A DNA stretch of 64,000 nt, from NCBI RefSeq assembly GCF_964355755.1, contig NC_092672.1, positions 13,826,001-13,890,000 of the forward strand, in the 5' to 3' direction. The notes beneath the pieces are model-generated. The model searched no databases, was not told the DNA's origin, and saw only the letters and a list, made by a program, of their open reading frames with translations. The first letter of the stretch is position 1. The number at the start of each line of letters is the position of its first letter. Origin of the DNA: Antedon mediterranea. Its lineage: Eukaryota; Animalia; Echinodermata. Both the position numbers and the translations under genes were made by a program. Below, piece by piece: positions 4,768 to 44,900 of the stretch.

Positions 4768-4886
4768 TTTAGCATTGCTTGTACAGTATCAGTAGAAATA
4801 ATATTATGTATTGTATATGTATACTCTGAATAAACTGGGGAAGCTTAACTTATTTGTGTTGTGTGTAAATGAAGGTATAATTAGCT

Positions 4887-5359: not shown

Positions 5360-5437
5360 CACAGTTGGCAACGAAGAGGCCAACGAAGCAGCCCAAATTA
5401 AGTGCAGGTAGAACCGATGACAAGCCATTCAGATGAT

Positions 5438-6172: not shown

Positions 6173-6620
6173 TAGCATTAGTGTGTGTTCTGCGGCCTTG
6201 GAGACTACTGCTTCACTGGCTCTGAGGCATGCGAAGTAACATGAACAAGGCTCTGTATAGGATGAATTCGTATTTGGATTTCATGCTACCTCGCATATGT
6301 CCAATTAGCGTTAACAAGAATGTCGGAGGTGACCGGCGGTCTGATCGGTTTGGATGGAGAGTTCGTTTTTTGTTTCGCTACTCCTCTGCATAAATTGCTG
6401 ACTGCTGGATTTGCGGTAAGGTCTTCCATAAATGATACCCTGTGCACGAATGACACTGGGCTAAGGTAGTTTCGAATCGTGGAAATCGCCAGTGCATTTT
6501 TAGTCAGCTTACTTACATAGAGAACAATTGTCTGTGGAGTCGCTGGTAGCGGAAGGCTTAGTAATTTCCTGAATTGGTTAAAATTGTGCCGTTTGCTTTT
6601 ATAGTTACTAGCGGTTCATT
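6173..6620 (-). pseudogene. Truncated tyrosine recombinase ORF of DIRS copy 1
   Basis: Reverse complement of the 27283-27660 ORF (PQTIVLYVSKL...ISTIRNYLS...YFACLRASE) with small indels; the C-terminal catalytic H-x-x-R/Y part was not seen. Confidence 0.8.
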
Positions 6621-6638
6621 TGCTTAATGAGTTCCACA

Positions 6639-9976: not shown

Positions 9977-11173
9977 GGCAAAATCAAATGTACATCTGAC
10001 CAATTACTCAACTCCCTGACGCACAGCTACTCCACAGTAGTTCAATATAATAGTTTTCCCATCCTGTGAAATGGCGTAGCCCAGTTTGATCTTTTAACCC
10101 TGTACTGTGTTTTGAATGGGCATCGGACGAACAGGAGATTCTTCTGTTATAATTTCTTTGATAATAACACAACAGCGGCAAGTACAATAAAGCTTCAGAC
10201 TGCTTTAATTGTTACTAAGAAACAAAAGCGCACACAGGTGTACGCCCGCGTCGTAGTACTGTTACGTTTGTTCCGTCACCACCCAAGATATTATAGCCGT
10301 TTAGATGTAGACTTTTGATTAATTGCGGTTACAGTTTGAATTTACTTATACTATCATCAACTGTATAAACACATTTTCCGAAAAATAACATTTAAAAATA
10401 AAAGAGACTGTGTTTAGGATTACTAAAAAGATAAACAAAAGTCTACAACACTGGGTAGGCGGGAACAAGACCCGATCTTGCGGTGTTCGGACGAGAACCA
10501 GTGTATTCAACGTGGTATGGTTGTAGACATTATGTTACTTCAAGATTATATATTAAAATCCGTTTAAAGGAGAGCTACCTGCATGATCTTAAAGAAAGGT
10601 TATTTAGATAGAAAAAGGAGCTAAGTCTAATTTCAGTAGAGAATAGGCGTGACTTCTTAAACAAGACATTCATTGCCAATATAATAATTTCTCCACGATC
10701 TAATTTTATGAGTGATTATGTTTTTTTTTATTAATAACATACACCTAGATATACTTACCTTTCATTATGGTAGAGCCCGTACTGATGCTTTCAAATACTC
10801 AGGGATAGCACTGTTTCCTAAAATGTTTTCAGAAGTTGGTGTTACGATCAGAAAAAATCAACGTTCACCGATAGCAAAATATCGAATTTAATAACTTCTT
10901 TTTGTCAAAAGTTTTCAGCGATAACTTTACTAATGGTATATTCTGACGTCATGGATATACTTATGCAAAATTGTGTTGTTCATGTTTGTTTGCAGGTGTT
11001 ACATATTCATAATGATGTTTTTTATAATGATGATGATGCTGATGATAATAATGATGTTATTGATAGTAATGATGATGATATGATGCTGTTGATAATAATG
11101 CTTTTTTTTTATTTTTAAAAATGTTTCTTACAGGATCTACTCAACATTCAATGACTACACGGCTAACTGCTAC

Positions 11174-17300: not shown

Positions 17301-20300
17301 TTAACTGATTGTGTTTCTTGCTTGTTTGTTTTTGCCAAAAAAAAAGCATACACCAGTAATTGCTATTTATTGAGAGAATAAATGTGACAGAAAATAAATG
17401 TAAGAAACCTACCGACTGCTTCAATTGCTTTCCGGGTTTGGAATCCTTTACCGTTCCTGCATTATACTGGGCAAACAGCTTGGTAACCTTTGTGTAGCAT
17501 CGGTCCGTATACAATGATACTTGGAACATCGGTTCCATGGACGATATTATCTGCAATACAACGTTATTATTTATTATTACTATCCTTATTTATTATTATC
17601 GTTATTATCTTTTTATTATTGTTAATATCCTTATTTATTATATATTATTATTAATTACAACATTATTATTAATTATATCACCATTACATTATTAATTACA
17701 ACTTTATATATTAGAGTCCTAAATAACTTGTTTAAATAATATTAATAATACCTTTTTTTCGAACGATTGTTTGCCAATTGCCTCTGCACACTTTCTCCTC
17801 CATGTCGAAGTCGTTTTGGCATCTTTGTCATTGTAATCTTGCAAAATGTTACGGCATACTGCAACGTTGTCTTCAAAAGTTGCTTGGTGAGTATTACCTG
17901 TGACGAAATTATGTCGAGATGCCACAAGTAGTGATTCAGTTTTTGTTAGATCAAAATAGACTGCCACTTCTAATTGTTTAAATATATTCTCACTCATTGT
18001 TGATAGTGCTGTTCTTAAATGATTTCCGCCAAGTGAATAAAAAATACACTTCTCGTATTCTTGTTTGTTAAAGAAATCGTAATGTTCTTTATTAAGCAAT
18101 ACAGGTAGTATCGTGTTCACCAGACCGTCCTTTGTAAGCGTTTCTTGAATTTTTTTAACAAAATCTTGGTCGATCTTGCGAAGTAGTAAGTCCGATGGCG
18201 GCGCTACTATCGAACTTCTTGGCACAGCAACTAGACCTATAAACGTAAAATGACAGTTTGTTAAATATTACATCTTATGATTATACAACAAGGAAGTATT
18301 CTCCCCAGGATTTAGATCAAGCATCGTAGTAATCTTATGTCCTGGCTAATCTGGGTGTCGGTGACTAATATTGTCAGCCTACTACTACAATTTAGTGAAA
18401 TCATTTACCTGTATTTCACAATTCTAATATGAAACAACTTAATATAAATATGTCATTGTATTATTATTATGATAGGATTTTCATATTTAAAAACCAATTT
18501 TATTTTTTACTAAAATGGGGAATTCCACAGTAATTGCAAGTTGCGACATCAGTAAAAAACATTTTAAAAAATTGTTTTACATACAAAGTTGGACATTTTC
18601 AGAAAAAGGATACATTATTAAATTATATGAATTACAAAAAATGATTGACATTATATTTTAATATTAGTTTTATTTTTTAAATAACAATATATATCCTAAA
18701 AATTTAACGTTGCCATACAGTATAGGCCGTTTAGTCTAGGCCTAGGTAGTGTCAGGACATCATCACCCCCTGCCTGCTTGAGTGCATGGAGATCACCCTG
18801 CACATGTTATTTTTTTATATTTTAGTTAATTTTGAATTTATATAGGTATTTTGCACAATATCTAGGAAGGTTAGGCCTAGTGTATGTTAGCATCCGGGCT
18901 AGGTCTGGGTTTGCAAGGCTAGTAGTAGTCATGTGAAAGAAAATTGTCCAATCGAATGACCGGAATCTATTTATGCGTTTTATAATAACTGTTTGAAACT
19001 TAAATAACAATAAAACAAATAGAAAATAGAGTAACTATAAGAAGTTAAAACCTGTGTTCAAAATATCTTTAGTTCGTTCATCTTCGAAAAATGTGTTCAT
19101 CCGCTTTATATTTTAATAGGCCTAGTACGTATAATTACTTATCTAGCCAGATTATACTAATTTAACGTAACGAATTGTAGATACATTAAATCTAATCATG
19201 GTTAGGCCTATAGTTATTGTGAGTTATGTTTAAAATTACAGTTTTTGTTATCCAAGATCAAAGTGAATAACTATTATGTGACATATTCAACAAAACATTT
19301 GAAAAAATATAAAACAGTAACGTTTGTTTAATTGTAAACTACAGTAAAACAAAAGCAGATAATAATTATGCTTGTCCATGGGGCATGGTACAGTATGTAA
19401 CTTCAATAACAAATGTTTCATATACTAACCAATGATCTTTTCTTTGATTGTTTCGTCGATTGTCTTTATGTTAATTCTTGTTCTCTTTGTAGTTACGTTT
19501 TCAGCATCTTGAGCTTTTCGCTTTCGTAATGTTTGCAATGTTTTGGTAAGGTCGTCAATTGTCTTGCATTTGCAAAATGGGCAATTTTCGTCCGGTTTGA
19601 ATTTGCTCCACAATACTTTGGTTGCAGCAAGCGTACTACTACAGTCGCTTTCTTCTGTAACAATCTATAGTATTGCAAAATTGTTTTTAATTAAATAAAT
19701 AACTAAACATAGAAATTTATATAGTTGTTAAGTCTACACACTACACCCTAATATTCAGTGTTGGTGCTCTTGATGAAAATGCATTTTTTAAATCATATAT
19801 AAAACTTTAATGTTAAAAAAATGGTCAACAAAATTAGTATCAATGGTCCTATAGTAAAGATATATTACAATTTAGTTTTAGGCCTGAAACAACATTTCAA
19901 TTAATTAGATGAAATAAATAATCGAATAAATCATAATATATATTATAATCAGAAAGCCTATAAAATCCAAATATAATAGGCCTATTAAACAGCTGAAGAT
20001 TGTGCCCCTGGGAAAATACTAATAAAACTAATAATTGCGTGGCTTGAAACACTTTTTAAAACTGCAAAATGGAAAATAAAACATCTTTATAAAGTAATAA
20101 GACTGGTGAAGAATGGTTCCCTAAAAACATTAAAAGAAAATTATATTATTTAGAAGAACACAACAATCTTACCTTAAGCCAGTTTTTGCCTTTAGTTGTT
20201 TTGGTAAATTTTATAACCTTGCCTAACTGTTCACCATCAGAATGCTTTATTGCCCTAGTGTTATTAATTATTAGATAAGCAATGTTGTCTTCCTCTACAC

Positions 20301-20316
20301 AAAACCTCCAGTCCAT
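14334..20316 (-). CDS. 11-exon, ~690-aa protein with a ParB/Srx-like domain, a degenerate beta-class N6/N4 DNA methyltransferase-like domain and an acidic tail (left-arm copy)
   Basis: Reverse complement of the 49699-55678 model; one amino-acid difference seen (AQYNAG vs AQYYAG). Confidence 0.75.
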
Positions 20317-21566
20317 TTTTATCAAATGCGATAACGAAGTGATCACAAACAATGTTGGGCGACGAGTGACGCACTTTCACACTGTTACGATCTTTTATTT
20401 GGGCCAGGGAGTTATTAGTCAACTCCCTGTTTGGGCATTGTTCACATTGTTTATACTAAAGCTACAGATCAGCAGGAAGAAAAACTCAAGTGCAAATCGT
20501 ATTTCATATCGATAACGAGTATTATTTGCACGATAGAGATCGATAAAATCTGCCAGTAATATATAATCATTTTCATAGATTAACTTATATATTTTAATCT
20601 ACTTATACTGTAGTAAAATAATTTTTACCATTTCAAACTAATTCATATTGGGCTCCCGTAATTTCACCTATGCTACACTGCATAATATATATATATATAT
20701 ATATCAACTATGTAAATACTTTATTTGCACATAACATAATAACATGATATAAAAAACATATGACCAAAAAATAAATAAATCATATATTCAAAAGTTTAGC
20801 GCCTCTAAAGGAAACATCAAATTGAAGTAAGAAATCCTGATATTTTAACTAAATTAAAATTCTTGAATTAAATTCCTTTTTTATAAGCAGTTGTATATTG
20901 TTTTGTATAATTGTAAATTTATATTATATTTATAAAATAAGAAATTTCGGTTGCAAATATGCTTTTTTTTAAATACAGTATTACAGGGATCTTTTATTAT
21001 TTGAAGTTTAGGTTGTTGGTGGGGTAGCCAATGAACATAAAATTATTGTATTTTGACTATTTCCATTTTGATTGGTCAATTTTGTCGTTAAAAACACGTC
21101 CGTATAAATTGTGCGTCTCTTTTGAATAACCTACTGTGTAATATTGAAGCTGTTTATAATTGTTTACCATGAATCATTAAAATATAAACATACGCCTATT
21201 TAAAATGAACTTAGAATAGTTATTAAATACATAAAAACAAGCTAGTGATCAATACTTTATTTTCTTGTAAAAAAATATGAATATATCGCGTATTATAAGA
21301 TAAAAGCGTTGATAGTATTCCAGATATCAACTTGAAAAATATAGCACAAAAAAAAAACAATTTTAAGCATTCATTGATCTAAACCAAAATTGTCCACTTT
21401 TTATGTACAAAAAAACAAAGTCATATCGGATAGACCATCATCAAATGTTCACGTATCTCTGAAATATTGTGTCGAACGAAAAGATTATTTCAATTTCAAA
21501 GTTGGCCTGTCAAACTAGGCGTTAGAAAAATAAATTAAACTAATATATAAAATTATATTGGACAAA

Positions 21567-22766: not shown

Positions 22767-24938
22767 TAAATGATATGCACATTTAATAATACAATTTTGT
22801 TTTTGCATCCACATGATATTATTATATAATGAATTTTTCAATTGTGTAGCCAAGTCACACCTGTGGTACATTGGGTTAACTTTCACAATTCTTATTTGTT
22901 TTTTTTTCTTTTTTTCCATAATAGTGTAAGGTTATAGTAGGTCACCCCATGAATAAAGGTGCAATAGTATGATATATAACATTGTTTTATCAAAGTGCCG
23001 TTAAAATGAATAATTATAAAATATTATTATAATATATAAAAGTAAAGCCACATTAAATCGTATTTAATTAGGATAATATATGGATGCACCTTCCATTTGG
23101 TCGAGTGCCACTGTTGTAAAAGTGTAATCTCCAAATAAATTATTATTATTATTATTATTATTATGGGCAACACTAGCCCTATATCAGTGGAAGTGCTTTT
23201 ACAAAATTGAGAATATGAATATTTTACATCCATTTCAAAAGCTTCATTATTATTGCGATCTTTTAGACATTATGTGAGTTAAAAAACAGAAAATTAAAAA
23301 AACATTTAAATATAAATCCACTAGTCCTTTATAAGTGAAAGAATAAAATTGAGAATATGAAGCAAACAAGCACTGCCTGAGTGAACTGGAATAAAGAAAT
23401 AAAAACAAAGGATCAAGGCACAAGCTGAAAACAATGAAGATAGCTTGGTAGATATAAACAATTAGGAATGTATCTAAAAAAAAACAACTCAAATGGTGGT
23501 TAATATTGAACCTTAAACTTAGGTAGTCGATGGAATAATTTTACCGATCTGGGAGTATGTTAATGTTAAGATCAAACAGTTTTGTGGCTTTAAGTAGTAA
23601 TTCCAAGTTTTTTTTGTCTTTTGACAACCTAATATGTTCGTGTCATTGATATAAGATATTACACGAATGCGACATGTCTTTTGAATGCAATACATTGAAC
23701 GTTCTTTGCGGTTTCTGCAAGTATCAGTATTATTCATTTAGGCCTATATCATTCAGATTAGATATAATATTCAGAACCGGCGCAACGTTTTTGAAATTTA
23801 GTGGTAATTTAAGGTTGTGTATATTTGGAAGTCCAAACCCACGTCAGCTCGACTATGATTGGGACTAATGTTTAGAGCATTTTTAGGAATTCGGAGTTCT
23901 GTGCTGTTTCTGCGATTATCCCTTTATATCACATTAGATCAAAAAAAAAACCCAATGATATGTTATTGATATAAGGGTTTATCTCTGTCACGGAAATTAG
24001 GCATTAATAACGTCAAGGACATTACAATTTTGTCGCAATAATTGCCAACCCCAAAAACAACTATCACTCAAATCATGCTTGAAAAGGCACAACTTTATAC
24101 ACCCTTTATACTATAAAGTACTACTAATACTATAAAAAATGTACTACAATGATAGTTTTCAGTAATTACTTCTTATATGCATCATGCACACTAATTAATC
24201 AGTTTTGTCTTCTACATATAAATTTTGATAATGAAATTGTTTGCAACATCAATATAAACACTTCCAAAAGTGGCATACAGGGTCGGAGCCCCATGCCATT
24301 AGCTACCCATGATCATCATGTAGGCGTAGTGCCGTTAAAATGAATTATTATAAAATATTATTATTAAGCAAAGGTATAAATGTGTAATTTTATGAAAGCA
24401 TTTTGTGTCTCACAGTGTAGATATATCGCTTAATTATGGATTATTTAACCCTTTTAACCCTGGTGTGTTTATTTCTTTCTAATTAAAAGTCTAACCTGAA
24501 TTTTAAATCAATGAATAAAGAGTAACAGTGACCGTACCATGCATATAGGCTCAATAGAATTATAAATTTCAAAGAGTTTTGTTAAATTCGTTTATAATAT
24601 ATCAAAGTATAGCCACATTAAATCTTTAAAACAAGTTAAATCTAAACTTTAAATTCTATCTTCAAACAATTTCCTGTATGATCAAATCATCTTTTATGTA
24701 TATAATTTTCAGAAATGAATACTGTACCTTGTAATAATAATATAATAATATTTATTTTGAGCAACACATATTTAACAGTGGCACACATACAACATTTAAG
24801 CATATCAAAATATGTTTATACCTCCATGATTTAAGCAACACAATTACTTTAAAAAAAAAATATACAAAAACAATAGAAAATAAAAACTGAAACTACCTGT
24901 ACAACTTGTCATATTTAATTAATAGGATACCAGTAACC

Positions 24939-27900
24939 CATACAGACTAATACATTTACATCCCACTCAATATCACCTCACAGGTTTCACGTGGTTAGGC
25001 CAGTATTACTACGATAAAACGCTTCCCCAAGGCGGCGGATCTTCGTGTCAAATATTCAATAAGTTTTCTGACGGAGTAAAATTTTTCCTTATAAAAAAGT
25101 TAAAACAGCCCAATAACGTGAAAATATTAGACGACATCCTCGTCATTGAAGACACACACCAACTGTGTGCGAACTCCTTGAAGATATCCAAGGCGCTTGC
25201 TGACCGCGGTGGCATACCTCTAGCACCGCACAAAACAATTTCACCCACCACCACCATTTCCTTCCTGGGTATTGAACTTGACTTACAGAAAATGTAAGAC
25301 AGGCTTCCATCTGAGATAATAAAATTACGTTACTCCCTTTAAAGTTCAAAACTTCACTCAACTAAATTGAGAGCCCCCCAATCTCTTTGAAAAGCTACAA
25401 TTTGCCACCTGGGTTATACCCTCTGGACTGGCGTTCCTAAGAAGGCTTAATGCCCTAACGGCCGGTCTAACTAACCCCTTTTCAACTATTCACCTTTCTG
25501 ACTCAGCAAAGGAAGATCTCCAAATTTGGGCCGACTTTCTTAGCAAACACAATGGCGTTACTATTTTTCACCCCCACAAAAATTTGACTCGCAGCGTTTA
25601 CATTTCTCCTCTGATGCCTCAAAAACCGCACTTGGTGCGACCTTCCAAAAGTTCTGGATTCAAGGCCGCTGGCCGGAATCTTGGAAAATGTTCGACATCA
25701 TAGTTCTCGAAATTTACCCCATCTATGTCATGCTTTCGATTTTTGCAAAACAGCTAGCCAACACCCATGTAGTTTTCCACTGTGATAACCTAGCTGATGT
25801 ATATGTGCTTAACAAAAAAATTGTCATCAAACGAAAAGGTCATGAGAGTGGTTCGCGCTATCGTCCTTTTGTTACTACTAAACAACATTCAGTTTACAGC
25901 CAGGCACATCCCTGGTAAGCAAAACAGGATATGTGACGCTCTTTCTCGTTTTCAGGAAACGGAGGCCATGCTAGAGGAGCACAGTATGAACCGCACACCG
26001 CTAAAGATACCAAAGCACTTACAACCAATCTACTTCGAACCACTAAACAACTCAAGATCCTCACACGAGAGCTAATGTGGAACTCATTAAAATGGACCTG
26101 AAATGGATTTTCGATTTTTTTCATTTTAGAATGATGTTTTGGGGGCTATTAGGTGTTGCTAGAATGTATATTGTTACAAAATATAAATTGGCCCTTTTGG
26201 GGAAAGCCCCATTTGAAAATCAAAAAAATTCGCGGGTGACGTCACTTTGCGAATATATTCCTATCCCTCCAATGGACAATTTGCAGTTTTTTGGCTATAA
26301 TTCTTGAAATCTATGGATTATTTTCTAAAAAATGCTTGTGTATTTGCAGAAACGTATTTAGAATTTTTTTAGATAAAATTATTACCGTATAAACGGTTAT
26401 TCATCGAGTAAATGACGATTTAAAATCTTAAAATCAACGGTTTTTTTTCTGGCAATACCGAAGTTGGCCTGGCAACGTTGTCCGGGATACAGCTCCGTGC
26501 GCAATGATGCGTATCCATATTTTCCGTTCGTGTATTTTGTATCATTCGTAATTTATACTGCTAAAATATGTTAGTTTCTTTAGTTTTTAGTTTAGCAGAA
26601 TTAAATTAGTAATAACTAATATGAGATGATTATTTATTTGTCACGAATCAGGCAGTTCGAAAACGAATTTTATTCATATTTTACTTTGGCTTGACAATGA
26701 GCGCAGCAAGTTGTTGATATCGCTTTGGTCCTTGGATGCACATGAAACGGAGCCTCGCCGCATGATGTGGGTGGTGGATCGACTCCGCTCACTGGATTGG
26801 GGGCCTAGGCCTAGTAAAGGTTTGGGAGGTAGGCCTTCTAAATTCGGGTTTTAGAACAAACGAAGTACATTTTAGGGACCTATATTTCAACAACATTAGA
26901 TATTGAATAAATTAGTATTAGTGTTAACGCTTCGCGTATCTTTCCAGGCCGTCGATCATTCACTGACTATCGGGCGGCATACACGCTCTCTCGATATCAT
27001 TGTGTGTATATGTGACGTCGTGAATATAGAGGCTTCCGACGGCCGTTGAAATAGAATATTGCAATGGCGTGAGTAATTTTCGCTAATTTACCATGGTATC
27101 TTAAAATTTCGTTTACTCAAAATACTATACATTTTGTTTTTATTTGTATGGGTTTGTGTTAATTTGATACATTTAAATAACATGTGTGAATTTCTTGAAA
27201 ATCGAAATTCCATTTCAGGTCCATTTTAAGCAAATGGCACCATTTTAACCAATTCAGGAAATCACTAAGCCTTCCGCTACCAGTGACTCCACAGACAATT
27301 GTTCTCTATGTAAGTAAGCTGACTAAAAATGCACTGGCGATTTCCACGATTCGAAACTACCTTAGCCCAGTGTCATTCGTGCACAGGGTATCATTTCTGG
27401 AAGACCTTACCGCAAATCCAGCAGTCGGCAATTTATGCAGAGGAGTAGCGAAACAAAAAACAAACTCTCCATCCAAACCAATCAGACCGCCGGTCACCTC
27501 CGACATTCTTGTAACGCTAATTGGACATATGCGAGGTAGCATGAAATCCAAATACGAATTCATTCTATACAGAGCCTTGTTCATAATATGTTACTTCGCA
27601 TGCCTCAGAGCCAGTGAAGCAGTAGTCTCCAAGGCCGCAGAACACACACTAATGCTATAAACAATTAGCTCGCCATGCTAGTCTGGAACATACACAGTTT
27701 AACACTCATTCTTTCAGAATTGGTCGAGCTACCGACCTTCACCAACTTTGACACTCTCACCAAGACATTTTGATTTTTGGACGATGGTCGAACCACATAA
27801 CTTTGTCAAATACAGCGTTGTAAATATGGGTGCTGGCTGGTTGGCATATTTCCTAAGCATGACTGGGTATTAAGCGTCAAGCTTAAACAAACTTTGATAC

Positions 27901-28111
27901 TTATTTTTTCTGTATAACGTTTTACTTATTTCATTTTTGTTTTCTTTCGGTGACAGCATAGGTTGCACCGCCAATTATAATCATATGTTCAATCGGAGTC
28001 AACACGTTGCTCCAGGTAGACTAATAAGTTATTTATATGTTTTCGGTGTCAACATGGTTGCACCGTTTATTAAACTCAATTCTCAAACGCGTACTGGAGT
28101 CAACACATGTT
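24939..28111 (+). mobile_element. DIRS/Ngaro copy 2, 5'-truncated left part (RT-RNase H-YR remnants)
   Basis: Highly similar to the reverse complement of 5719-7774. It is interrupted by a TTAA MITE and ends at the CATGTT TSD. Confidence 0.9.
26091..27225. mobile_element. Non-autonomous TTAA-specific DNA transposon (Kolobok-like)
   Basis: TIRs AATGGACCTGAAATGGA.TTTCGATTTT. TTAA TSD at 26087-26090 and 27226-27229. The empty site is present in DIRS copy 1 (~6624). Termini are RR..YY rather than the CC..GG of piggyBac. Confidence 0.85.
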
Positions 28112-28149
28112 AGTAGTAAATAAGGTACTTCAGACCCGACCTTGATGTA

Positions 28150-28450
28150 TTTCCTGATTACGTAATATCCGCCAGGTGTTTCTAATGAAGGTCGTTTCCG
28201 CCAGGTGTTTCTAATGAAGGTCGTTCTTTTCCTGATTACGTATAGTTATGTAATTTCCGCCAGGTGTTTCTAATGAAGGTCGTTTTTTTCCTGTTATTGT
28301 AATAGTTATGTAATTTCCGCCAGGTGTTTCTAATGAAGGTCGTTCTTTTCCTGGTTTCGTACTAGTTATGTAATTTCCGCCAGGTGTTTCTAATGAAGGT
28401 CGTTCTTTTCCTGGTTTCGTAATAATTATGTAATTTCCGCCAGGTGTTTC
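28150..28450. repeat. ~60-bp sub-terminal tandem repeats in the TIR (also at ~41592-41892 and ~62678-62978)
   Basis: Six occurrences of the core TCCGCCAGGTGTTTCT, five of them continuing AATGAAGGTCGTT. Confidence 0.92.
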
Positions 28451-28470
28451 TTTGTCTCTTATTTATTAAT

Positions 28471-28520
28471 TTTTGGCGCGATGTTCTGGTACGTGGTGAG
28501 TGACGTCATTACGTTATTTA
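28471..28520 (+). promoter_or_regulatory. Putative promoter of the TIR ORF with an E2F-like site and a CRE/ATF site
   Basis: TTTTGGCGCG (28471-28480) and TGACGTCA (28501-28508) lie ~115-150 bp upstream of the ATG at 28622. Confidence 0.45.
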
Positions 28521-28621
28521 TGATTTAAGACGGTGTAACAAAGTGAAGCGGTTATTGTTGTACTATTTTCCAGTTGTTTTTGCATATTTTTGCGTAGAGT
28601 ATCTCTTTTCAGTATTTCATT

Positions 28622-29176
28622 ATGTCTGGAAGTATATATTTTTCGCAAGGGAGTTGTGCAGATAATGTTATAATAATTAGCGATGATGAGGAGACTGTTG
28701 TTGTTCCAGGCAGTGATATAGATGATCGTTACACGGAGGCCGAAGAGGTTATCCCCGCCGGTATAGATGAAGGAGTCGAGAGGAGTAACAGGCCTACAAG
28801 TTGTATATTCACGTACGTGGACGAGGTGGAGAGAGAATTTATGTTGAAAATGGAGCGTTTGGTTAAACAATTGTTTGCTGCTCAAGTGTTAGCCAAGTGT
28901 TGGGTTTTAAGTAAAGCGGCTTGTTATGGTTGTGAATTTGACAGGAGCAGTCAAAAAGATCATGATTTTTGTTGTATGAAGTCTCTAGAGGAACAGATTG
29001 ACTATTTTTATCGGGAGGTTCTGGATAAGAAGTATGTTTCAGTCGATACCGTTTACAACGAACTAAATATGCACGGAGAATATTCATTGCCTCGGTATAG
29101 ACATTTCGTTTATTTTCTTGTCAATACCCTGATTAATTCAGAGGCTATTTTTAAGCTGTTGTGCGAGGATATTTAA
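28622..29176 (+). CDS. Intronless 184-aa protein with an acidic N-terminus, a SIM-like VIIISDDEE motif and a CxxC-x8-H-x2-C putative Zn motif
   Basis: Open ATG-to-stop ORF, identical in three copies; motif CYGCEFDRSSQKDHDFCC. Confidence 0.7.
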   Translation: MSGSIYFSQGSCADNVIIISDDEETVVVPGSDIDDRYTEAEEVIPAGIDEGVERSNRPTSCIFTYVDEVEREFMLKMERLVKQLFAAQVLAKCWVLSKAACYGCEFDRSSQKDHDFCCMKSLEEQIDYFYREVLDKKYVSVDTVYNELNMHGEYSLPRYRHFVYFLVNTLINSEAIFKLLCEDI

Positions 29177-29335
29177 ATTGTGTTTCGCACGTGTCACGGA
29201 AACGATTGACCGGAAATAACAATCATTATCTTTTTAATTACTGTACTGGGCTACTTCTCTACTGAGCTGCATATATATCCTGATTCAAGCGTAATCGTTC
29301 GTTTCACTCTCTGTAACTCTCTACAGTCTATAAAC

Positions 29336-31175
29336 ATGAGTTTCAACTGTTTACCTACTCCGAAATTAGCAATTGGTGAGAAAGCCCGTAGGACTATGAA
29401 AAGAGTTATGGGGAGTTCTAATGGTCAAGCTGACGAGTGTAGCAGTTTAAAATTACCAACGATGGCTTCTACATCAGCGAATATAATGGATTCTATAAAA
29501 TCTTTTAACGGTCAAACAGATGAGTGTAAAGGTTTGAGTAAAGCCTCAGGAATGAGCGCCCGAGATTTTGCCGTAATGACCGATGGTGTACCAAAGATTT
29601 CCATAACTTCAAAGAATCGGATTTTCTTGTCTGAAAAACGCCATGTAGTGGCCCAGCGATGGGGTGACGATGTTTATGTTTGTCTCAGAGAGTATTACTA
29701 AACGGAAGAATATGGTGCCTTCAAACCTGGACCTCTAGGTATTAATTTACCCGTTCTGCTGTGGCAAAAACTTTTCAACAATATTGATTTAATTATTCAG
29801 TCACTGGAAGACTTACAAAGAGACATTAACATGGTGGAGGCAGTAAGAATCCCCCTTTCGGACATAATTCATGTGGTAGTAACTGGAAAGAAGAACAATT
29901 TGTGTGTATTCGTCGCTATTACCAGTCTGAAGAAGGAGGAAAGTTTAAACCCGGTAAAAAAGGTGTAAACCTTCCAAAGAGTCAGTGGTTCAAGTTAATT
30001 GAAAAACACGGTGAAATACAAAAGATGATTGAGGAGGTTGGTAATGATAATGCAGCTACTGTTGAAGGAGGTGTTGACAAAAACGTTAATGGAGGACGTT
30101 TATTCAATTCAGAACATCATTTGCTACCTCCTGATAAGTTATCGGTGCAAAAGATAATAGGGGAAAATTTAGACTGTGATTACCTTCAACTTCTTGATAA
30201 AGGAGCAGCCGATACATTGTTTAAAAAATGTGAGGAAGAGATTGACTATTTTACCGGTGATTTTGCAAAGGTGAAAGTGTATGGAAAGTGGTTTAATATT
30301 CCTAGAAAACAGGTTAGTTCCATTATGTTTTTATCCGTGGTTTTGTATTAATGACTTGTTAATTACTTGTATATCGTTTCCTTTGTTTTTCTTTATTTAC
30401 CGCTGTGTAGCTATAGGTGTAATTTACTCTTTTACTGTAAATTATTTTATTTAGGCGTGTTCATTTACATCTCGCCAAATAATAAATGACTTTCTTTGTA
30501 TGGTTTCCTCTCTGCAGGTTTCGTTTGGCAATTCAGGCTTAACTTACAAATATTCAGGCAATACAGTACCAGCTTTACCGTGGCCACCATTCCTGAAAGA
30601 TCTCCGCGACCTTTTAAAATCGGTTACAGGACATTACTTCAATTTTGTTTTGGTCAACCGGTAAATATTCTTGTTTATTATTTTATTTATTTATTTATTT
30701 ATTTATTTTTATTGATTAAAAGGGTCTATAGTTTACCTCTAAAACGATTGAACATTATCAGTATTCATACTGGATGATTTCTGCAATTTGTTAGATAAGA
30801 TTGTTTTAATGGATAATTGGGGTTTTTTTTAGTCTCATCTTAAAATATCTTATTTTCTATTGTATTTTGTCGTTACTCTATAGATATGCTACTGGAAGTG
30901 ATTACATTGGCGAACACAAAGATGATGAGAAAGACATGGATCACTTTAGTTCAATCGCCTCTGTATCATTGGGGCAAACACGTATGTTTAGATTTCGACA
31001 TGGTGATGCGCGAGGTAAGAGTCCCAAAAGAATCATTGAGCCAGTAACTGTTGATCTTAAACACGGTACATTATTAATGATGAATTATCCCACTAATGAG
31101 TACTGGTACCATTCACTGCCTAAAAATCAATCCATCAAGCTACCAAGAATAAATCTCACGTTTAGAGATATTTAA
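29336..31175 (+). pseudogene. PC4-PC4-ALKBH2-like fusion gene with 3 exons (29336-30312, 30518-30660, 30884-31175), an in-frame TAA at 29699 and a 4-bp frameshift at ~29880
   Basis: Two PC4/Sub1 domains: VCLREYY*TEEYGAFKPGPLGINLPVLLWQKL and VCIRRYYQSEEGGKFKPGKKGVNLPKSQWFKL. ALKBH2-like domain: ENLDCDY..KVKVYGKWFNIPRKQ|VSFGNSGLTYKYSG..FNFVLVNR|YATGSDYIGEHKDDE..WYHSLP..RINLTFR, with HxD..H and Rx5R intact. Confidence 0.88.
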
Positions 31176-34100
31176 AGATGAGAGAAATGTTACGCAAACA
31201 TTACAGTCTTTAATAGTGATTGCAGATCTCAAGAATATCAACTGTTCATGATCTGTTCTCATTTAGTATAGTAGTACCAGTTGAATTATTTTTGTGATGA
31301 TATTCCTACAAATGGTTGTATTATTGTATTGAAGTTAATTCACTTAGATTTTGGCCTAATTCCATTGATCGTTAATAATCATGTGATTGTTTGTCATTGT
31401 GTGGATAATGATTAACTTTACGAATAATTTCTTAAAAGTAACTTGTAATGTATTTCTAATTGTTAAATACAATTTTTTATGTTTTTAATAAGTGTGTAAG
31501 TTTTTCTTTAAAGCATTTTAATCGTAATTTCAAGAGTAATATGTACTTGTAACGTTTGAACCGGACTGGTAGATTAAACAAAAAAAAAACAAAAACAACA
31601 AAAACAAAACACGTTATAATAACACTAATAACAGCACATATTTTCGTACATGTATCAATGATTTATCTACATATGTGTGATTAATATTATTACAATAAAG
31701 ACCATGTACATCTACGATATTTTTACTGTAAGTGGTATTGTAAATAAAAATTATGAATTCAATCGTGAGAAATGACCGATATCTGTGTATTATTTTATAT
31801 TACTTTTATCATAATTGCAAAAAAAAAAAAAAATTCAGAGAAATCATAATTATCGAATACAGAAAGACGTTTTGGTTACCAATTGTATTTCTTGACACTT
31901 AATACATTTTAACAGAAAACAAGACCTTCAACCGGAGCCAAAAGTGGAAATTTGTTTACGTGCAGGTTATTGCCATTAGATATTCTTAGAACTACTTTGG
32001 TTTTTATAAATATTGTCACTTTTTTTCTACACGTTTATCTACCGAGATTTTGTTTTCCTTTTTATGAATCTTCCGTTGTTCATAAGCATTATTAATTTTT
32101 ACAGGCCTTGTTCTTCGCTTTGCAGGCTAAATCTTATAACGGCATAGGCCTACATTTTAACGGTTCTTTGTAAATATCCTCTTATTGATTGTTACCTTTA
32201 GTTCTCTGAATGTTTTAATTTACCGTAGATGATGAAAAAATCCATTAATCTAGCACCATTTAATAAAAAAAAAAGGTTCCGCAGTAAATGGTTTATTTTT
32301 TATGGTATTGATGGAATCATCGAGGCACAATATTAGGCTGAAAAACATGACGTCACTATTTTAAACGGTTTATCATACAAGAACAATTAACCAATCACAA
32401 AACTGAGCTACTGATTTGCGTAGAAGTTTCTGGAAATGACAAATTAAGGAAACACGTACACTTTAATAAATATATATTAATTTTTATATAAATAATAGAC
32501 AAAACAAAAGGAAATACACCAAACAAATCATTTTCGTTATGAATTTATAATAACTTTAAATTTTGTCCATCACAGGAGACGCGTTTTCCAATTGTAAAAC
32601 AGTTTCGCATTGCGTCGCAACACATGCACATACTGCAAGTACCGTACCGTACTGTAACAAGTCTACTGATATGTATTTTGTTGGTCACTCATCATTTTAG
32701 CCAACACATTATTTAACTCATCAGGTGTAATATCTTTTCACAAATCCTTTATATCTTTACTTTTTCTTGACAACTCATAACAAACAAGAATAGTACTCTG
32801 AATGAGTGTGGGAGAGGTGTGTGGGAGTCCCATTCAACTAAACCTTGCCAATTTGTACTCGACCTACGATAAAACCATTTTTTAAAAGTCAACATAGCGA
32901 CGCGAGAAAAAATTGATAATAGGGATAAAAAGTTTTTCTTGCATTGTTATACAGTAATCTATGTTTTTCGGTGTTTACACCATCTCATTGTTTATAATTA
33001 CGTTTGTTAATATCGATAGTGTTTCTCTAGCAGAGTTATATTACTTGTTTATACTCGTATAGTTTGCAGTCCTCCATGTTGTTCGTATATTTTGTAAAAA
33101 GTGTACTTATGATTACTTTTAAAAACCAACTCATTTTATTTGCATTTTATCTACACCTCATGGTTAAAATGTGTTGTTTTTCATAGAGTGTGATGCTGCT
33201 TAAAACGTTATACTAGTATAACCACCAAAACGGTTTATTATCTGTAGGAAATCATCAATTGTAACATGCGGTAAACAATACAAATTAGTTTCACAAATTA
33301 TTAAAAAATAGCACAATTGTTACAAATGAATTTAAGAAAATAAAGGTGTACAGATTTTATTTCGAAAAAGTGTAGACCTAGACCTACAAAGATAATTTTA
33401 CATAAAGTGTACAGAATAAATTAACAAAAAAAGGTCACACATACATTAAACTAATTCTTATAAAAGTGTACAGTGTACTTTGGTTATCAGGTATATCAAC
33501 TTTAGTATTTTAAGTATAGGGCCTATTTGTGGCAAACACACGGTTCCTTTTAATTGTGGGTAGAGGCCTTTTGCCGTTCGTAATTCAAACTGTTCGTAAA
33601 ATTGAAGTTAATATTCTGAGATTAGGCCTATAGCCTATGATTGCAGCTTATACTAGTCAACGGTCTAAAAGAGCTGTATTGCAGGATGCTAAACATAAAA
33701 GTTCATTAATAAACAGTATATTATAACGATAAAGAAACGAATGTACGATACACCAATATAGCAATACAATAACTGATTAACTGAAAACTTGAAGTCTACT
33801 GTATTCCTACAATCATTCAAGTAGACATTGTTTGCTGAGTGTATGGTACTTTCTCCAAAGAGAATTCGAACGATGGGCTTTCGGACGTGTTTCTACGGTT
33901 ATCAGAACGGGTCGATAATGAAAAAAAAAACAAAAAAAAACAAACAAACTGCCTACTAACTCCCAAAAAATCAATACCTATAAATAAGCTGAACCTACCC
34001 CACTAAATAATCTCTTCCATACATCAAAATCGACCGAAAATGATCTGGACATTGAAAAGTGGACACGGTCGTCTGTTCTTCTTTTCTGTTTCCACGGCTT

Positions 34101-34540
34101 GGGACGACATCCCTGCTAGTGATGTACGGTAGCCATGCGGTCTACACACTTATGATGACCACATCGCATAACATGTTCAGGGAACTTATTTTTCAACTCT
34201 CTGATACAATGTTTAAATACAAGTAGACTGGAAACCATTTAGGAACAGGGGTTTCTAATAATAGAAGTTGTTTAAAACTTTAGTTATTGTCAAGGGGAAT
34301 TGTTCAAGACTTGGAGTAAAAATAGTCAAGACCGGGGGAAAATGGTCAAGACCGGAAGAAAATTAAATTTCACCATTTTATAAGTTTATAGTCATTTATT
34401 GTGTTAAAATTCATTTATTATTAGACCTGTATACGTATTCAATAACAAAAAATAACTTTGTTACATTAATAACATATCTTTAGTGGTTAAGGTAATATAT
34501 TATTTCTCTGTATACTGACGTCACAAATATAGATAAAGAG

Positions 34541-34836
34541 AGACTGTAACTAAATGTTTATTACTTATTAGGGTTACAGGGAGAGTTCCATACAGCATTA
34601 AAAGGTCAATTAATGAGCCACCCAACTTAATTAAGTACCGGTACTTAACAAATGTGCTCAAACTCAATAAGGGTTACAAATCTACAAGAGACTGTAACTA
34701 AATGTTTATTACTTATTAGGGTTACAGGGAGAGTTCCATGCAACATTAAAAGGTCAATTAATGAGCCACCCAACTTAATTAAGTACCGGTACTTAACAAA
34801 TGTGCTCAAACTCAATAAGGGTTACAAATCTACAAA
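34541..34836. repeat. Two 148-bp direct repeats next to the palindrome centre (mirror ~35205-35500)
   Basis: Units start at 34541 and 34689. Each contains the 18-bp palindrome TTAAGTACCGGTACTTAA (34631-34648 and 34779-34796). Confidence 0.92.
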
Positions 34837-34988
34837 AGAGGACATTTTATTTTTAAACCAGGGTTAAACATTAAAAGGTCAATTACTTGAACTCTGAACA
34901 TGGGAAAAATACTTGTGTCAATTGACACTTGAACTTGACATCTATACAAGGACGAATAGACTGTGACAATTAACCATGACCTCTGGTC

Positions 34989-35052
34989 AGCCGTTTTATT
35001 AGGGGGCTCTCAAATTTCGACGAAGTCGAAAACTGAAACCCCCATGCTTTTG
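34989..35052. other. Imperfect hairpin spacer at the palindrome axis
   Basis: TTTCGAC-GAA-GTCGAAA (35015-35031), with further possible TCA/TGA and GGGGG/CCCCC pairings separated by mismatched bulges. Confidence 0.9.
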
Positions 35053-38000: not shown

Positions 38001-38866
38001 AGATAAACGTGTAGAAAAAAAGTGACAATATTTATAAAAACCAAAGTAGTTCTAAGAATATCTAATGGCAATAACCTGCACGTAAACAAATTTCCACTTT
38101 TGGCTCCGGTTGAAGGTCTTGTTTTCTGTTAAAATGTATTAAGTGTCAAGAAATACAATTGGTAACCAAAACGTCTTTCTGTATTCGATAATTATGATTT
38201 CTCTGAATTTTTTTTTTTTTTTTGCAATTATGATAAAAGTAATATAAAATAATACACAGATATCGGTCATTTCTCACGATTGAATTCATAATTTTTATTT
38301 ACAATACCACTTACAGTAAAAATATCGTAGATGTACATGGTCTTTATTGTAATAATATTAATCACACATATGTAGATAAATCATTGATACATGTACGAAA
38401 ATATGTGCTATTATTAGTGTTATTATAACGTGTTTTGTTTTTGTTGTTTTTGTTTTTTTTTTGTTTAATCTACCAGTCCGGTTCAAACGTTACAAGTACA
38501 TATTACTCTTGAAATTACGATTAAAATGCTTTAAAGAAAAACTTACACACTTATTAAAAACATAAAAAATTGTATTTAACAATTAGAAATACATTACAAG
38601 TTACTTTTAAGAAATTATTCGTAAAGTTAATCATTATCCACACAATGACAAACAATCACATGATTATTAACGATCAATGGAATTAGGCCAAAATCTAAGT
38701 GAATTAACTTCAATACAATTATACAACCATTTGTAGGAATATCATCACAAAAATAATTCAACTGGTACTACTATACTAAATGAGAACAGATCATGAACAG
38801 TTGATATTCTTGAGATCTGCAATCACTATTAAAGACTGTAATGTTTGCGTAACATTTCTCTCATCT

Positions 38867-40706
38867 TTAAATATCTCTAAACGTGAGATTTATTCTTGGT
38901 AGCTTGATGGATTGATTTTTAGGCAGTGAATGGTACCAGTACTCATTAGTGGGATAATTCATCATTAATAATGTACCGTGTTTAAGATCAACAGTTACTG
39001 GCTCAATGATTCTTTTGGGACTCTTACCTCGCGCATCACCATGTCGAAATCTAAACATACGTGTTTGCCCCAATGATACAGAGGCGATTGAACTAAAGTG
39101 ATCCATGTCTTTCTCATCATCTTTGTGTTCGCCAATGTAATCACTTCCAGTAGCATATCTATAGAGTAACGACAAAATACAATAGAAAATAAGATATTTT
39201 AAGATGAGACTAAAAAAAACCCCAATTATCCATTAAAACAATCTTATCTAACAAATTGCAGAAATCATCCAGTATGAATACTGATAATGTTCAATCGTTT
39301 TAGAGGTAAACTATAGACCCTTTTAATCAATAAAAATAAATAAATAAATAAATAAATAAAATAATAAACAAGAATATTTACCGGTTGACCAAAACAAAAT
39401 TGAAGTAATGTCCTGTAACCGATTTTAAAAGGTCGCGGAGATCTTTCAGGAATGGTGGCCACGGTAAAGCTGGTACTGTATTGCCTGAATATTTGTAAGT
39501 TAAGCCTGAATTGCCAAACGAAACCTGCAGAGAGGAAACCATACAAAGAAAGTCATTTATTATTTGGCGAGATGTAAATGAACACGCCTAAATAAAATAA
39601 TTTACAGTAAAAGAGTAAATTACACCTATAGCTACACAGCGGTAAATAAAGAAAAACAAAGGAAACGATATACAAGTAATTAACAAGTCATTAATACAAA
39701 ACCACGGATAAAAACATAATGGAACTAACCTGTTTTCTAGGAATATTAAACCACTTTCCATACACTTTCACCTTTGCAAAATCACCGGTAAAATAGTCAA
39801 TCTCTTCCTCACATTTTTTAAACAATGTATCGGCTGCTCCTTTATCAAGAAGTTGAAGGTAATCACAGTCTAAATTTTCCCCTATTATCTTTTGCACCGA
39901 TAACTTATCAGGAGGTAGCAAATGATGTTCTGAATTGAATAAACGTCCTCCATTAACGTTTTTGTCAACACCTCCTTCAACAGTAGCTGCATTATCATTA
40001 CCAACCTCCTCAATCATCTTTTGTATTTCACCGTGTTTTTCAATTAACTTGAACCACTGACTCTTTGGAAGGTTTACACCTTTTTTACCGGGTTTAAACT
40101 TTCCTCCTTCTTCAGACTGGTAATAGCGACGAATACACACAAATTGTTCTTCTTTCCAGTTACTACCACATGAATTATGTCCGAAAGGGGGATTCTTACT
40201 GCCTCCACCATGTTAATGTCTCTTTGTAAGTCTTCCAGTGACTGAATAATTAAATCAATATTGTTGAAAAGTTTTTGCCACAGCAGAACGGGTAAATTAA
40301 TACCTAGAGGTCCAGGTTTGAAGGCACCATATTCTTCCGTTTAGTAATACTCTCTGAGACAAACATAAACATCGTCACCCCATCGCTGGGCCACTACATG
40401 GCGTTTTTCAGACAAGAAAATCCGATTCTTTGAAGTTATGGAAATCTTTGGTACACCATCGGTCATTACGGCAAAATCTCGGGCGCTCATTCCTGAGGCT
40501 TTACTCAAACCTTTACACTCATCTGTTTGACCGTTAAAAGATTTTATAGAATCCATTATATTCGCTGATGTAGAAGCCATCGTTGGTAATTTTAAACTGC
40601 TACACTCGTCAGCTTGACCATTAGAACTCCCCATAACTCTTTTCATAGTCCTACGGGCTTTCTCACCAATTGCTAATTTCGGAGTAGGTAAACAGTTGAA
40701 ACTCAT
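38867..40706 (-). pseudogene. PC4-PC4-ALKBH2-like gene, palindrome mirror copy
   Basis: Reverse complement of 29336-31175 with the same lesions. Confidence 0.88.
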
Positions 40707-41930: not shown

Positions 41931-44900
41931 AACATGTGTTGACTCCAGTACGCGTTTGAGAATTGAGTTTAATAAACGGTGCAACCATGTTGACACCGAA
42001 AACATATAAATAACTTATTAGTCTACCTGGAGCAACGTGTTGACTCCGATTGAACATATGATTATAATTGGCGGTGCAACCTATGCTGTCACCGAAAGAA
42101 AACAAAAATGAAATAAGTAAAACGTTATACAGAAAAAATAAGTATCAAAGTTTGTTTAAGCTTGACGCTTAATACCCAGTCATGCTTAGGAAATATGCCA
42201 ACCAGCCAGCACCCATATTTACAACGCTGTATTTGACAAAGTTATGTGGTTCGACCATCGTCCAAAAATCAAAATGTCTTGGTGAGAGTGTCAAAGTTGG
42301 TGAAGGTCGGTAGCTCGACCAATTCTGAAAGAATGAGTGTTAAACTGTGTATGTTCCAGACTAGCATGGCGAGCTAATTGTTTATAGCATTAGTGTGTGT
42401 TCTGCGGCCTTGGAGACTACTGCTTCACTGGCTCTGAGGCATGCGAAGTAACATATTATGAACAAGGCTCTGTATAGAATGAATTCGTATTTGGATTTCA
42501 TGCTACCTCGCATATGTCCAATTAGCGTTACAAGAATGTCGGAGGTGACCGGCGGTCTGATTGGTTTGGATGGAGAGTTTGTTTTTTGTTTCGCTACTCC
42601 TCTGCATAAATTGCCGACTGCTGGATTTGCGGTAAGGTCTTCCAGAAATGATACCCTGTGCACGAATGACACTGGGCTAAGGTAGTTTCGAATCGTGGAA
42701 ATCGCCAGTGCATTTTTAGTCAGCTTACTTACATAGAGAACAATTGTCTGTGGAGTCACTGGTAGCGGAAGGCTTAGTGATTTCCTGAATTGGTTAAAAT
42801 GGTGCCATTTGCTTAAAATGGACCTGAAATGGAATTTCGATTTTCAAGAAATTCACACATGTTATTTAAATGTATCAAATTAACACAAACCCATACAAAT
42901 AAAAACAAAATGTATAGTATTTTGAGTAAACGAAATTTTAAGATACCATGGTAAATTAGCGAAAATTACTCACGCCATTGCAATATTCTATTTCAACGGC
43001 CGTCGGAAGCCTCTATATTCACGACGTCACATATACACACAATGATATCGAGAGAGCGTGTATGCCGCCCGATAGTCAGTGAATGATCGACGGCCTGGAA
43101 AGATTTATTCAATATCTAATGTTGTTGAAATATAGGTCCCTAAAATGTACTTCGTTTGTTCTAAAACCCGAATTTAGAAGGCCTACCTCCCAAACCTTTA
43201 CTAGGCCTAGGCCCCCAATCCAGTGAGCGGAGTCGATCCACCACCCACATCATGCGGCGAGGCTCCGTTTCATGTGCATCCAAGGACCAAAGCGATATCA
43301 ACAACTTGCTGCGCTCATTGTCAAGCCAAAGTAAAATATGAATAAAATTCGTTTTCGAACTGCCTGATTCGTGACAAATAAATAATCATCTCATATTAGT
43401 TATTACTAATTTAATTCTGCTAAACTAAAAACTAAAGAAACTAACATATTTTAGCAGTATAAATTACGAATGATACAAAATACACGAACGGAAAATATGG
43501 ATACGCATCATTGCGCACGGAGCTGTATCCCGGACAACGTTGCCAGGCCAACTTCGGTATTGCCAGAAAAAAAACCGTTGATTTTAAGATTTTAAATCGT
43601 CATTTACTCGATGAATAACCGTTTATACGGTAATAATTTTATCTAAAAAAATTCTAAATACGTTTCTGCAAATACACAAGCATTTTTTAGAAAATAATCC
43701 ATAGATTTCAAGAATTATAGCCAAAAAACTGCAAATTGTCCATTGGAGGGATAGGAATATATTCGCAAAGTGACGTCACCCGCGAATTTTTTTGATTTTC
43801 AAATGGGGCTTTCCCCAAAAGGGCCAATTTATATTTTGTAACAATATACATTCTAGCAACACCTAATAGCCCCCAAAACATCATTCTAAAATGAAAAAAA
43901 TCGAAAATCCATTTCAGGTCCATTTTAATGAGTTCCACATTAGCTCTCGTGTGAGGATCTTGAGTTGTTTAGTGGTTCGAAGTAGATTGGTTGTAAGTGC
44001 TTTGGTATCTTTAGCGGTGTGCGGTTCATACTGTGCTCCTCTAGCATGGCCTCCGTTTCCTGAAAACGAGAAAGAGCGTCACATATCCTGTTTTGCTTAC
44101 CAGGGATGTGCCTGGCTGTAAACTGAATGTTGTTTAGTAGTAACAAAAGGACGATAGCGCGAACCACTCTCATGACCTTTTCGTTTGATGACAATTTTTT
44201 TGTTAAGCACATATACATCAGCTAGGTTATCACAGTGGAAAACTACATGGGTGTTGGCTAGCTGTTTTGCAAAAATCGAAAGCATGACATAGATGGGGTA
44301 AATTTCGAGAACTATGATGTCGAACATTTTCCAAGATTCCGGCCAGCGGCCTTGAATCCAGAACTTTTGGAAGGTCGCACCAAGTGCGGTTTTTGAGGCA
44401 TCAGAGGAGAAATGTAAACGCTGCGAGTCAAATTTTTGTGGGGGTGAAAAATAGTAACGCCATTGTGTTTGCTAAGAAAGTCGGCCCAAATTTGGAGATC
44501 TTCCTTTGCTGAGTCAGAAAGGTGAATAGTTGAAAAGGGGTTAGTTAGACCGGCCGTTAGGGCATTAAGCCTTCTTAGGAACGCCAGTCCAGAGGGTATA
44601 TCCCAGGTGGCAAATTGTAGCTTTTCAAAGAGATTGGGGGGCTCTCAATTTAGTTGAGTGAAGTTTTGAACTTTAAAGGGAGTAACGTAATTTTATTATC
44701 TCAGATGGAAGCCTGTCTTACATTTTCTGTAAGTCAAGTTCAATACCCAGGAAGGAAATGGTGGTGGTGGGTGAAATTGTTTTGTGCGGTGCTAGAGGTA
44801 TGCCACCGCGGTCAGCAAGCGCCTTGGATATCTTCAAGGAGTTCGCACACAGTTGGTGTGTGTCTTCAATGACGAGGATGTCGTCTAATATTTTCACGTT

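Follow-up and report, generated by a model that had tools for sequence, protein, structure and literature searches.

Architecture of the fusion gene

The window, the whole 64,000-nucleotide stretch of Antedon mediterranea DNA that was analysed, contains on its plus strand at 29336–31181 a gene that begins with an ATG at 29336 and whose product runs from an N-terminal tail through two PC4 repeats and a linker to an ALKBH2 domain. A mirror-image second copy and an incomplete third copy lie to its right. The features of the locus are as follows (positions are those of the window).

5719–5724 (plus): empty paralogous target site with one AACATG, in the other copy of a DIRS-type retrotransposon; RT and RNase H-like ORFs nearby
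28106–28111 (minus): target-site duplication AACATG at the copy 1 end; same 6-mer at 41931–41936 (copy 2) and 63017–63022 (copy 3)
28112–28451 (plus): element end, 5'-AGTAGT plus a 60-bp tandem array (28195–28451, 4.3 copies)
28622–29176 (plus): ORF-A, 184 amino acids, intronless, between the element end and the fusion gene
29336–30312 (plus): exon 1 (S/T/K-rich N-tail, both PC4 repeats, linker, start of ALKBH2), with breaks at 29699–29701 and near 29877
about 29618–29810 (plus): PC4 repeat 1, in exon 1
about 29846–30040 (plus): PC4 repeat 2, in exon 1
30076–30100 (plus): likely fusion junction, a DxNxNG tail joined in frame to pre-catalytic ALKBH2 sequence; intron-free
30313–30517 (plus): intron 1, GT-AG, 205 nt, phase 0, KQ|VS
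30518–30660 (plus): exon 2 (ALKBH2 lid and NxY region)
30661–30883 (plus): intron 2, GT-AG, 223 nt, phase 2
30884–31181 (plus): exon 3 (HxD, distal His, RxxxxxR), with an early stop at 31173–31175
31182–34988 (no strand): inner palindrome arm, non-coding, with a 148-bp tandem pair at 34539–34839
34989–35052 (no strand): 64-nt central spacer of the palindrome, predicted to form an imperfect hairpin (GAA loop)
38861–40706 (minus): copy 2 of the gene, a mirror image of copy 1 with zero differences over 28112–31181; element end at 41930
60288–63016 (minus): copy 3, comprising a second element end, ORF-A, exon 1, exon 2 and part of intron 2; ATG at 61792

Translated with its TAA read as X, copy 3 matched PF02229 over two stretches (E 5.8e-24; 83.8 bits against a curated cut-off of 25), and matches above this cut-off were also found in seven intact database models; exon 3 by itself matched the Pfam family 2OG-FeII_Oxy_2 (E 1.4e-19). 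Both parts that the initial annotation had proposed for the reconstructed protein were recovered. Removal of the two GT-AG introns (30313–30517 and 30661–30883) from copy 1 left an uninterrupted AlkB frame containing NxY, HxD, H and RxxxxxR, in agreement with the intact Fe and 2OG ligands and two spliceosomal introns described earlier; the Fe (HxD...H) and 2OG (NxY, RxxxxxR) ligands of copy 1 are present in all eight complete fused models described below.

None of the three copies in the window is intact. An in-frame TAA at 29699–29701 is common to all of them, and copies 1 and 2 have a 4-nt gap near 29877 relative to copy 3, in which PC4, PC4 and AlkB lie in one frame except for the shared TAA. 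A further break in copies 1 and 2, the TAA at 31173–31175, falls two codons short of the end in intact relatives; the gene end was therefore placed at 31181 rather than at the 31175 given previously, the start at 29336 being unchanged. As copy 3 stops within intron 2 at 60288 and has no exon 3, the single ORF first reported for this locus is a composite of two copies, although its domain architecture stands.

An intron that skips the first stop was ruled out, no fitting acceptor being listed. Misassembly or another artefact at the PC4–AlkB join was ruled out by public contigs that cross the junction (from three of four runs, under two organism labels) and by intact database proteins of like architecture. 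At the position of the first TAA of the window, contigs of all four runs encode an amino acid. In run X9, 20 of 30 bins were covered, none of them upstream of the gene, and the contigs that skip the intron positions resemble an unfused relative.

Ends and target site of the carrier element

All three copies begin with 5'-AGTAGT (at 28112, 41930 and 63016). The order inward is AGTAGT, the 60-bp tandem array, ORF-A and the fusion gene, which starts 1.2 kb inside the end; the terminal 24-mer was found at the three copy ends alone. Outside these ends, the flank of copy 3 corresponds to the left half of an empty site (98.7% identical) and that of copy 1 to its right half (98.0%), with an exact 6-bp duplication, AACATG, at both flanks and a single AACATG at the empty site (one insertion). 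The chance of an AGTAGT end together with a 6-bp duplication at one junction is roughly 4e-7. In this rearranged locus the shared inverted ends are 99.8% identical and at least 2.7 kb long; as copy 3 is not identical to copy 1, a single sequence has not been read twice to give both ends.

The window contains two degraded DIRS-type copies (4882–7988 and 24925–28111, 98–99% alike), in which RT, RNase H-like and recombinase-like frames are present; the insertion target is one of the two copies. The DIRS element was ruled out as the carrier, the DIRS-type sequence being the target that the insertion has split.

In vertebrate Mavericks the commonest reported end is 5'-(AGT)2//(ACT)2-3' with a 6-bp duplication, and the TIRs range from 46 to 1447 bp (PMC8097293), which the ends shared by the copies here exceed; target duplications of 5–8 bp are described elsewhere (PMC10748475). 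In nematode Mavericks, intron-bearing cargo adjoins the left TIR and capture of host genes is known (10.1101/2022.07.12.499685). That the carrier is a mobile element with Polinton/Maverick-type ends, and the fusion gene its cargo, is well supported by the sequence of these junctions. The Pfam families for pPolB, integrase, ATPase, protease and capsid matched none of the 146 ORFs of at least 52 amino acids in 1–35020, Pfam being insensitive to divergent or fragmented capsid genes. Since no polymerase, integrase or capsid genes were found in the window, the carrier was filed as a gutted or non-autonomous derivative, not a complete Polinton. The Polinton-like carrier of the initial annotation is supported by its AGTAGT end, 6-bp duplication and inverted ends, and not by core genes beside the fusion.

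The ends of one insertion suggest the Polinton link, and we consider it improbable that the carrier is instead some other long-armed DNA element, or that a local rearrangement mimics such ends. The absence of core genes among the window ORFs searched would fit either, as would the heavy rearrangement of a locus whose palindrome (11 differences between arms in 25 kb) could be partly an assembly artefact; however, the exact 6-bp duplication and the AGTAGT end jointly match the published Maverick signature, and the divergence of copy 3 from copy 1 also speaks against them. TGACGT(CA) motifs resembling CRE were noted by eye at about 26236, 27013, 28499, 32350 and 34515, one of them just past the terminal array.

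A palindrome of 50.5 kb surrounds the gene

A near-perfect 50.5-kb palindrome extends from 9728 to 60284 with arms that are 99.8% identical, and copy 2, as the mirror of copy 1 within it, is not independent of that copy. The arms differ by 11 events in 25 kb; the inner 3.8 kb, which is 15% of the length, accounts for five of them (p 0.016). The 64-nt hairpin at the centre is modest, with a predicted energy of -11.3 kcal/mol (z -2.6) and 4 of 200 shuffles as good. At 9018–10004 lies a G-rich compound tandem array of 301-bp and shorter units, the inner part of which is the point joining the palindrome to copy 3 at 60284–60288.

A fold-back may have deleted the interior of the element and duplicated its right end plus flank. 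Possibly, the element is natively a 13.8-kb palindrome with the gene in both arms, a later template switch having copied the flank. Four near-identical pairs of Antedon family models on the same scaffold (99.6–100%) weakly favour the native palindrome; these pairs could themselves reflect local duplication, or one locus modelled twice, and copy 2 may be an assembly fold-back. The hairpin centre, the inner-arm differences and the same-scaffold pairs provide hints for a reading that we hold only tentatively, in which a Polinton-derived feather-star element carries a self-targeted repair enzyme, built from its own single-strand-binding protein (SSB) and host ALKBH2, and spreads as a two-ended fold-back palindrome. 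An element of this kind, functional at either end and with a gene copy in each arm, may be likened to a snap-back defective virus genome.

The ALKBH2 domain and the PC4 pair

Among solved relatives the AlkB domain is nearest to ABH2 (phmmer E 8.8e-71 versus 1.5e-22 for ABH3), and not to ABH3 or AlkB. A first structure model, built from 13 near-identical rows, reached a pLDDT of 29, and the second resolved the AlkB domain alone, with a pLDDT of about 96 and a Foldseek rmsd of 0.8 Å to human ABH2. The F1 finger hairpin is hydrophobic and ABH2-like, with V-Y at the V101–F102 positions; the Y is found in sea urchin and sea star also, which rules out the finger tyrosine as a fusion-specific adaptation. 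In the RKK loop, a basic loop that serves the complementary strand in ABH2, there is one basic residue in the first four positions, versus three in sea urchin, sea star, lancelet and coelacanth. Unfused crinoid ALKBH2 proteins have one or two, so that loss of the basic loop, being shared with genes that are not fused, is not an adaptation of the fusion either. With a finger that is still ABH2-like and an RKK loss that unfused crinoid genes share, the catalytic domain shows no fusion-specific shift towards ssDNA and, given its ABH2-like finger, the predicted enzyme is probably not limited to ssDNA. In human ABH2 the hydrophobic finger is reported to confer activity on dsDNA (PMC2965238); the human enzyme repairs m1A and m3C in both ds and ssDNA, and PCNA places it at replication foci (PMC2965238, PMC8508711).

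Compared with ALKBH2/ABH2 (PDB 3bu0, 3rzg), the fusion has the same fold (predicted, within 0.8 Å), Fe/2OG ligands and hydrophobic finger hairpin, and like other crinoid ALKBH2 proteins it is without the RKK loop. It differs in that the host N-terminus, which binds PCNA in human, is swapped for the two PC4 repeats, and in being multi-copy and mobile.

In both PC4 repeats the two positions that stack on bases are still aromatic, F77 being replaced by W and W89 by Y, as in MoSub1; Y at position 89 occurs in many PC4 orthologues (PMC4350104). Binding of ssDNA by PC4 is described as needing a two-repeat unit, which tandem repeats in one chain can form in related folds (PMC7549692). In the model of the PC4 pair the expected secondary structure fits twice, with pLDDT mostly below 50. 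The repeats share with PC4/Sub1 (PF02229; PDB 1pcf, 4usg, 4bhm) the beta-strands-plus-helix unit, the stacking aromatics and the KPG-x-KG-x-NL/SL motif; they differ in being two to a chain, followed by an enzyme, and in being part of a crinoid subfamily that has multiple copies and carries a DxNxNG tail. Tandem-PC4 genes are also found in Anneissia (XP_033117833.1) and in bivalves, where both tandem and expanded PC4 genes are reported (PMC9223095).

Between the two subfamilies of the fusion, the AlkB domain is 97% identical, the PC4 repeats 84–89%, the linker 67–73% and the N-tail 48–64%. Nine of 17 coding differences to public contigs are synonymous, in a biased subset (drawn from 40 of 337 rows). 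These identities and the synonymous share hint at constraint on the AlkB and PC4 parts; recombination between copies rather than selection could also account for the high AlkB identity.

Relatives of the fusion and its range

A search with the PC4-to-AlkB region retained nine proteins among 619 candidates, the best being from Antedon mediterranea, with both Pfam families and at most 94% identity. The clusters of these proteins comprise 17 distinct Antedon mediterranea models (19 accessions) on seven scaffolds, the scaffolds being distinguished by their lengths. Eight of the 17, on five scaffolds, are complete as annotation models, with two PC4 repeats and every catalytic motif; the other nine are partial, either truncated or lacking a PC4 repeat. 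One partial model, XP_071949528.1, has the private residues of the window copy and also reads into intron 1. Most pairs are 95–100% identical, and by this measure the Antedon family is young.

Unfused ALKBH2 genes coexist with the family in Antedon mediterranea (proteins P0007, P0023 and P0024), where unfused ALKBH2 is itself duplicated. The initial annotation had called for intact PC4–AlkB fusions elsewhere, and the eight complete models supply them; it had also set its reading against two outcomes, PC4 and AlkB encoded separately in intact homologues, or a conserved single-copy host gene. Intact relatives are fused, they are multi-copy, and the unfused host genes persist; the spread over several scaffolds likewise rules out a single-copy host gene.

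Outside Antedon the fusion was not found when the PC4 profile was applied to the best 150 of 8019 matches (drawn from 1.84 billion representatives). Three of these 150 matched the profile, with both domains only in the Antedon protein P0003 and PC4 only in the other two, and Pfam analysis of 22 longer matches was consistent with both domains in P0003 alone. Two distant AlkB matches, P0128 and P0158, are unrelated fusions of AlkB to a NADAR domain, in both orders.

The nearest unfused relatives of the PC4 pair are one tandem PC4 protein and three single-repeat proteins of another crinoid, Anneissia japonica (three of the four come from contigs under 2 kb), together with two ENA proteins. The pair is a member of a PC4 family that crinoids carry in multiple copies; in Anneissia this family occurs unfused, in single and tandem form, and the halves of the fusion are present there solely as unfused proteins. 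No relative of this PC4 type was found among 115 and 8 pattern matches in viral contigs; in metagenome contigs the PC4 query gave one weak match out of 158 (30% identity, in a contig of 1.4 kb).

Origin of the enzyme half and the join

In a maximum-likelihood tree of 33 AlkB domains, which left out four partial Antedon models and most of the distant matches, 13 family members form one clade (100/99) within crinoid ALKBH2 (100/100). The fused clade groups with the unfused Antedon ALKBH2 genes, with Anneissia outside, at moderate support (90/86). Descent of the AlkB half from the host's own ALKBH2 lineage, the phylogenetic origin foreseen in the initial annotation, is thus well supported by the tree. 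The near-identical unfused pair P0007/P0023 is weakly sister to the fused clade (88/72) and may represent the donor lineage, or may itself be mobile cargo.

Host isoforms P0010 and P0024 differ by a 12-amino-acid block that ends at KQ|VS, the position of intron 1. The host gene therefore uses the same acceptor as intron 1 of the fusion, which answers, for intron 1, the comparison of intron positions that had been proposed and indicates that ALKBH2 was likely captured from the feather-star host as DNA. The DxNxNG tail is common to unfused crinoid PC4 proteins and in the fusion runs directly into sequence that aligns with host ALKBH2; the join was accordingly placed near 30076–30100, within an exon. 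An intronless tandem-PC4 gene of the element would have recombined in frame with host ALKBH2, such that the host N-terminus was replaced and the introns were kept.

Likely function and alternative explanations

Lesions of the m1A and m3C type form chiefly where nucleic acid is single-stranded, and long single strands are displaced when replication is protein-primed. The explanation that we favour, at somewhat better than even confidence, is that the locus holds a broken PC4–PC4–ALKBH2 gene in a Polinton/Maverick-ended element, that host ALKBH2 was captured as DNA, and that the PC4 pair is predicted to direct the repair of methyl damage to the ssDNA of the element. The likeliest function would be repair of m1A and m3C guided by PC4 on strands exposed in element replication; the best reading of the fusion may thus be a change of address, with repair aimed at PC4-coated element DNA. 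In this mechanism the two PC4 repeats would fold on each other to give the dimer-like unit needed for ssDNA binding, the pair would coat strands displaced in protein-primed replication, or melted DNA, and the oxygenase held there would reverse m1A and m3C. Integrase, acting in cis or provided in trans, would have mobilised the unit. The decay of this locus would have begun with a stop, followed by a frameshift in one arm, with a fold-back rearrangement leaving no core genes.

The fusion could instead be a passenger, ALKBH2 having been caught by accident beside a PC4 gene in a tolerated in-frame join and its uncooperative halves spread with the element. Every window copy is dead, nine of the 17 family models are partial, the family is young with most pairs 95–100% identical, and Mavericks are known to capture host genes (10.1101/2022.07.12.499685), all of which is as this account would have it. 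We nevertheless regard it as rather unlikely, as the in-frame join is kept in two subfamilies whose tails have fallen to 48–64% identity while the catalytic domain stands at 97% with all ligands. Less probable again is a family that serves the animal in the general repair of melted or replicating DNA, with the element ends as a mere copying route. PC4 and ALKBH2 each act in host DNA repair, and the duplication of unfused ALKBH2 in Antedon (P0007, P0023, P0024) would be in keeping with such a role; against this, the fused copies are scattered and nearly identical, are often disrupted and do not sit at a single fixed locus; a fresh end and target duplication still delimit the one in the window, and Anneissia has the unfused halves only.

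An anti-methylation role, which the initial annotation had raised beside repair, is a weak reading of the sequence. In its fuller form PC4 would open or bind element promoters and the oxygenase would remove or oxidise 5mC, or clear 3mC left by methyltransferases, a form of anti-silencing to which we attach little probability. Rosic and colleagues are said to have linked DNMT activity, 3mC damage and ALKB2 in 2018. The element end has a CpG o/e of 1.1–1.3, compared with 0.81 in the flank, over short stretches, and in vitro oxidation of 5mC is reported for ALKBH2, with AlkB and ALKBH3 performing better (PMC8508711). However, the active site is that of an unaltered ALKBH2 and is not TET-like, and a 5mC-reader domain is absent.

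Relation to known systems

With Polintons/Mavericks as described for vertebrates (PMC8097293) and with the wasp/krma cargo of nematodes (10.1101/2022.07.12.499685), the favoured reading shares the AGTAGT end, the 6-bp duplication, the inverted ends and an intron-bearing cargo of host origin close to one end. The locus differs in that core genes are absent, the ends are at least 2.7 kb and enclose the cargo, and the cargo forms one reading frame with a PC4 gene; DNA-repair cargo is absent from the available text of these two sources. AlkB genes occur in large DNA viruses (PMC10598087), and AlkB-family enzymes (PF13532) of large DNA viruses and plant RNA viruses likewise place a repair enzyme in a selfish replicon; according to the available text of that source, virus AlkB groups with bacterial and other lineages, whereas the window gene would be a recent capture of animal ALKBH2 with introns and a PC4 fusion.

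No paper on the PC4–AlkB fusion appeared among the top-listed open-access papers on PC4, AlkB and Polintons/Mavericks; supplementary gene tables may list PC4 in Polintons. There was no PC4 or AlkB in the main texts of PMC8502044, PMC10748475 and 10.64898/2026.10.13.758929, no PC4 in that of PMC8097293 and no AlkB in that of PMC6431247; 'PC4' in PMC11662393 was rejected as a mention of the protein, being a table label. Cargo capture by such elements is already known, and the PC4–ALKBH2 fusion would be a new form of it; the shared AGTAGT end of the three copies and the empty retrotransposon site with its exact 6-bp duplication are new observations.

If the favoured reading is true, the fusion is a recent and datable case of a virus-like transposon building a new architecture from host repair and DNA-binding genes. 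It would offer a direct test of what the accessory genes of animal Polintons do, and of whether alkylation of the single strands that Polinton replication exposes selects for a dedicated repair enzyme. Crinoids naturally have the fused protein, the unfused host protein and PC4-only proteins, so that the comparison is possible without engineering. Annotated 'ALKBH2 expansions' in crinoid genomes are likely to be mobile cargo.

ORF-A and other features of the window

No relatives of ORF-A were found by Pfam, among 57 candidates (none passed) or in viral contigs, and its leads in the atlas were sub-threshold, with scores of 0.83–0.84 and low recognition. The ORF has the motif C-x2-C ... S-Q-x-D-H-x2-C-C and is intact in all three copies.

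Outside the element end, 15200–20400 (minus) contains several exon-sized ORFs of an intron-rich gene with no useful Pfam match; the ORF at 17719–18267, itself without a Pfam match, has a GGNH motif that we take to recall ParB-like domains. Fragments of a LINE-type reverse transcriptase, broken up by GACA/GACC microsatellites, lie at 2418–3770 (minus).
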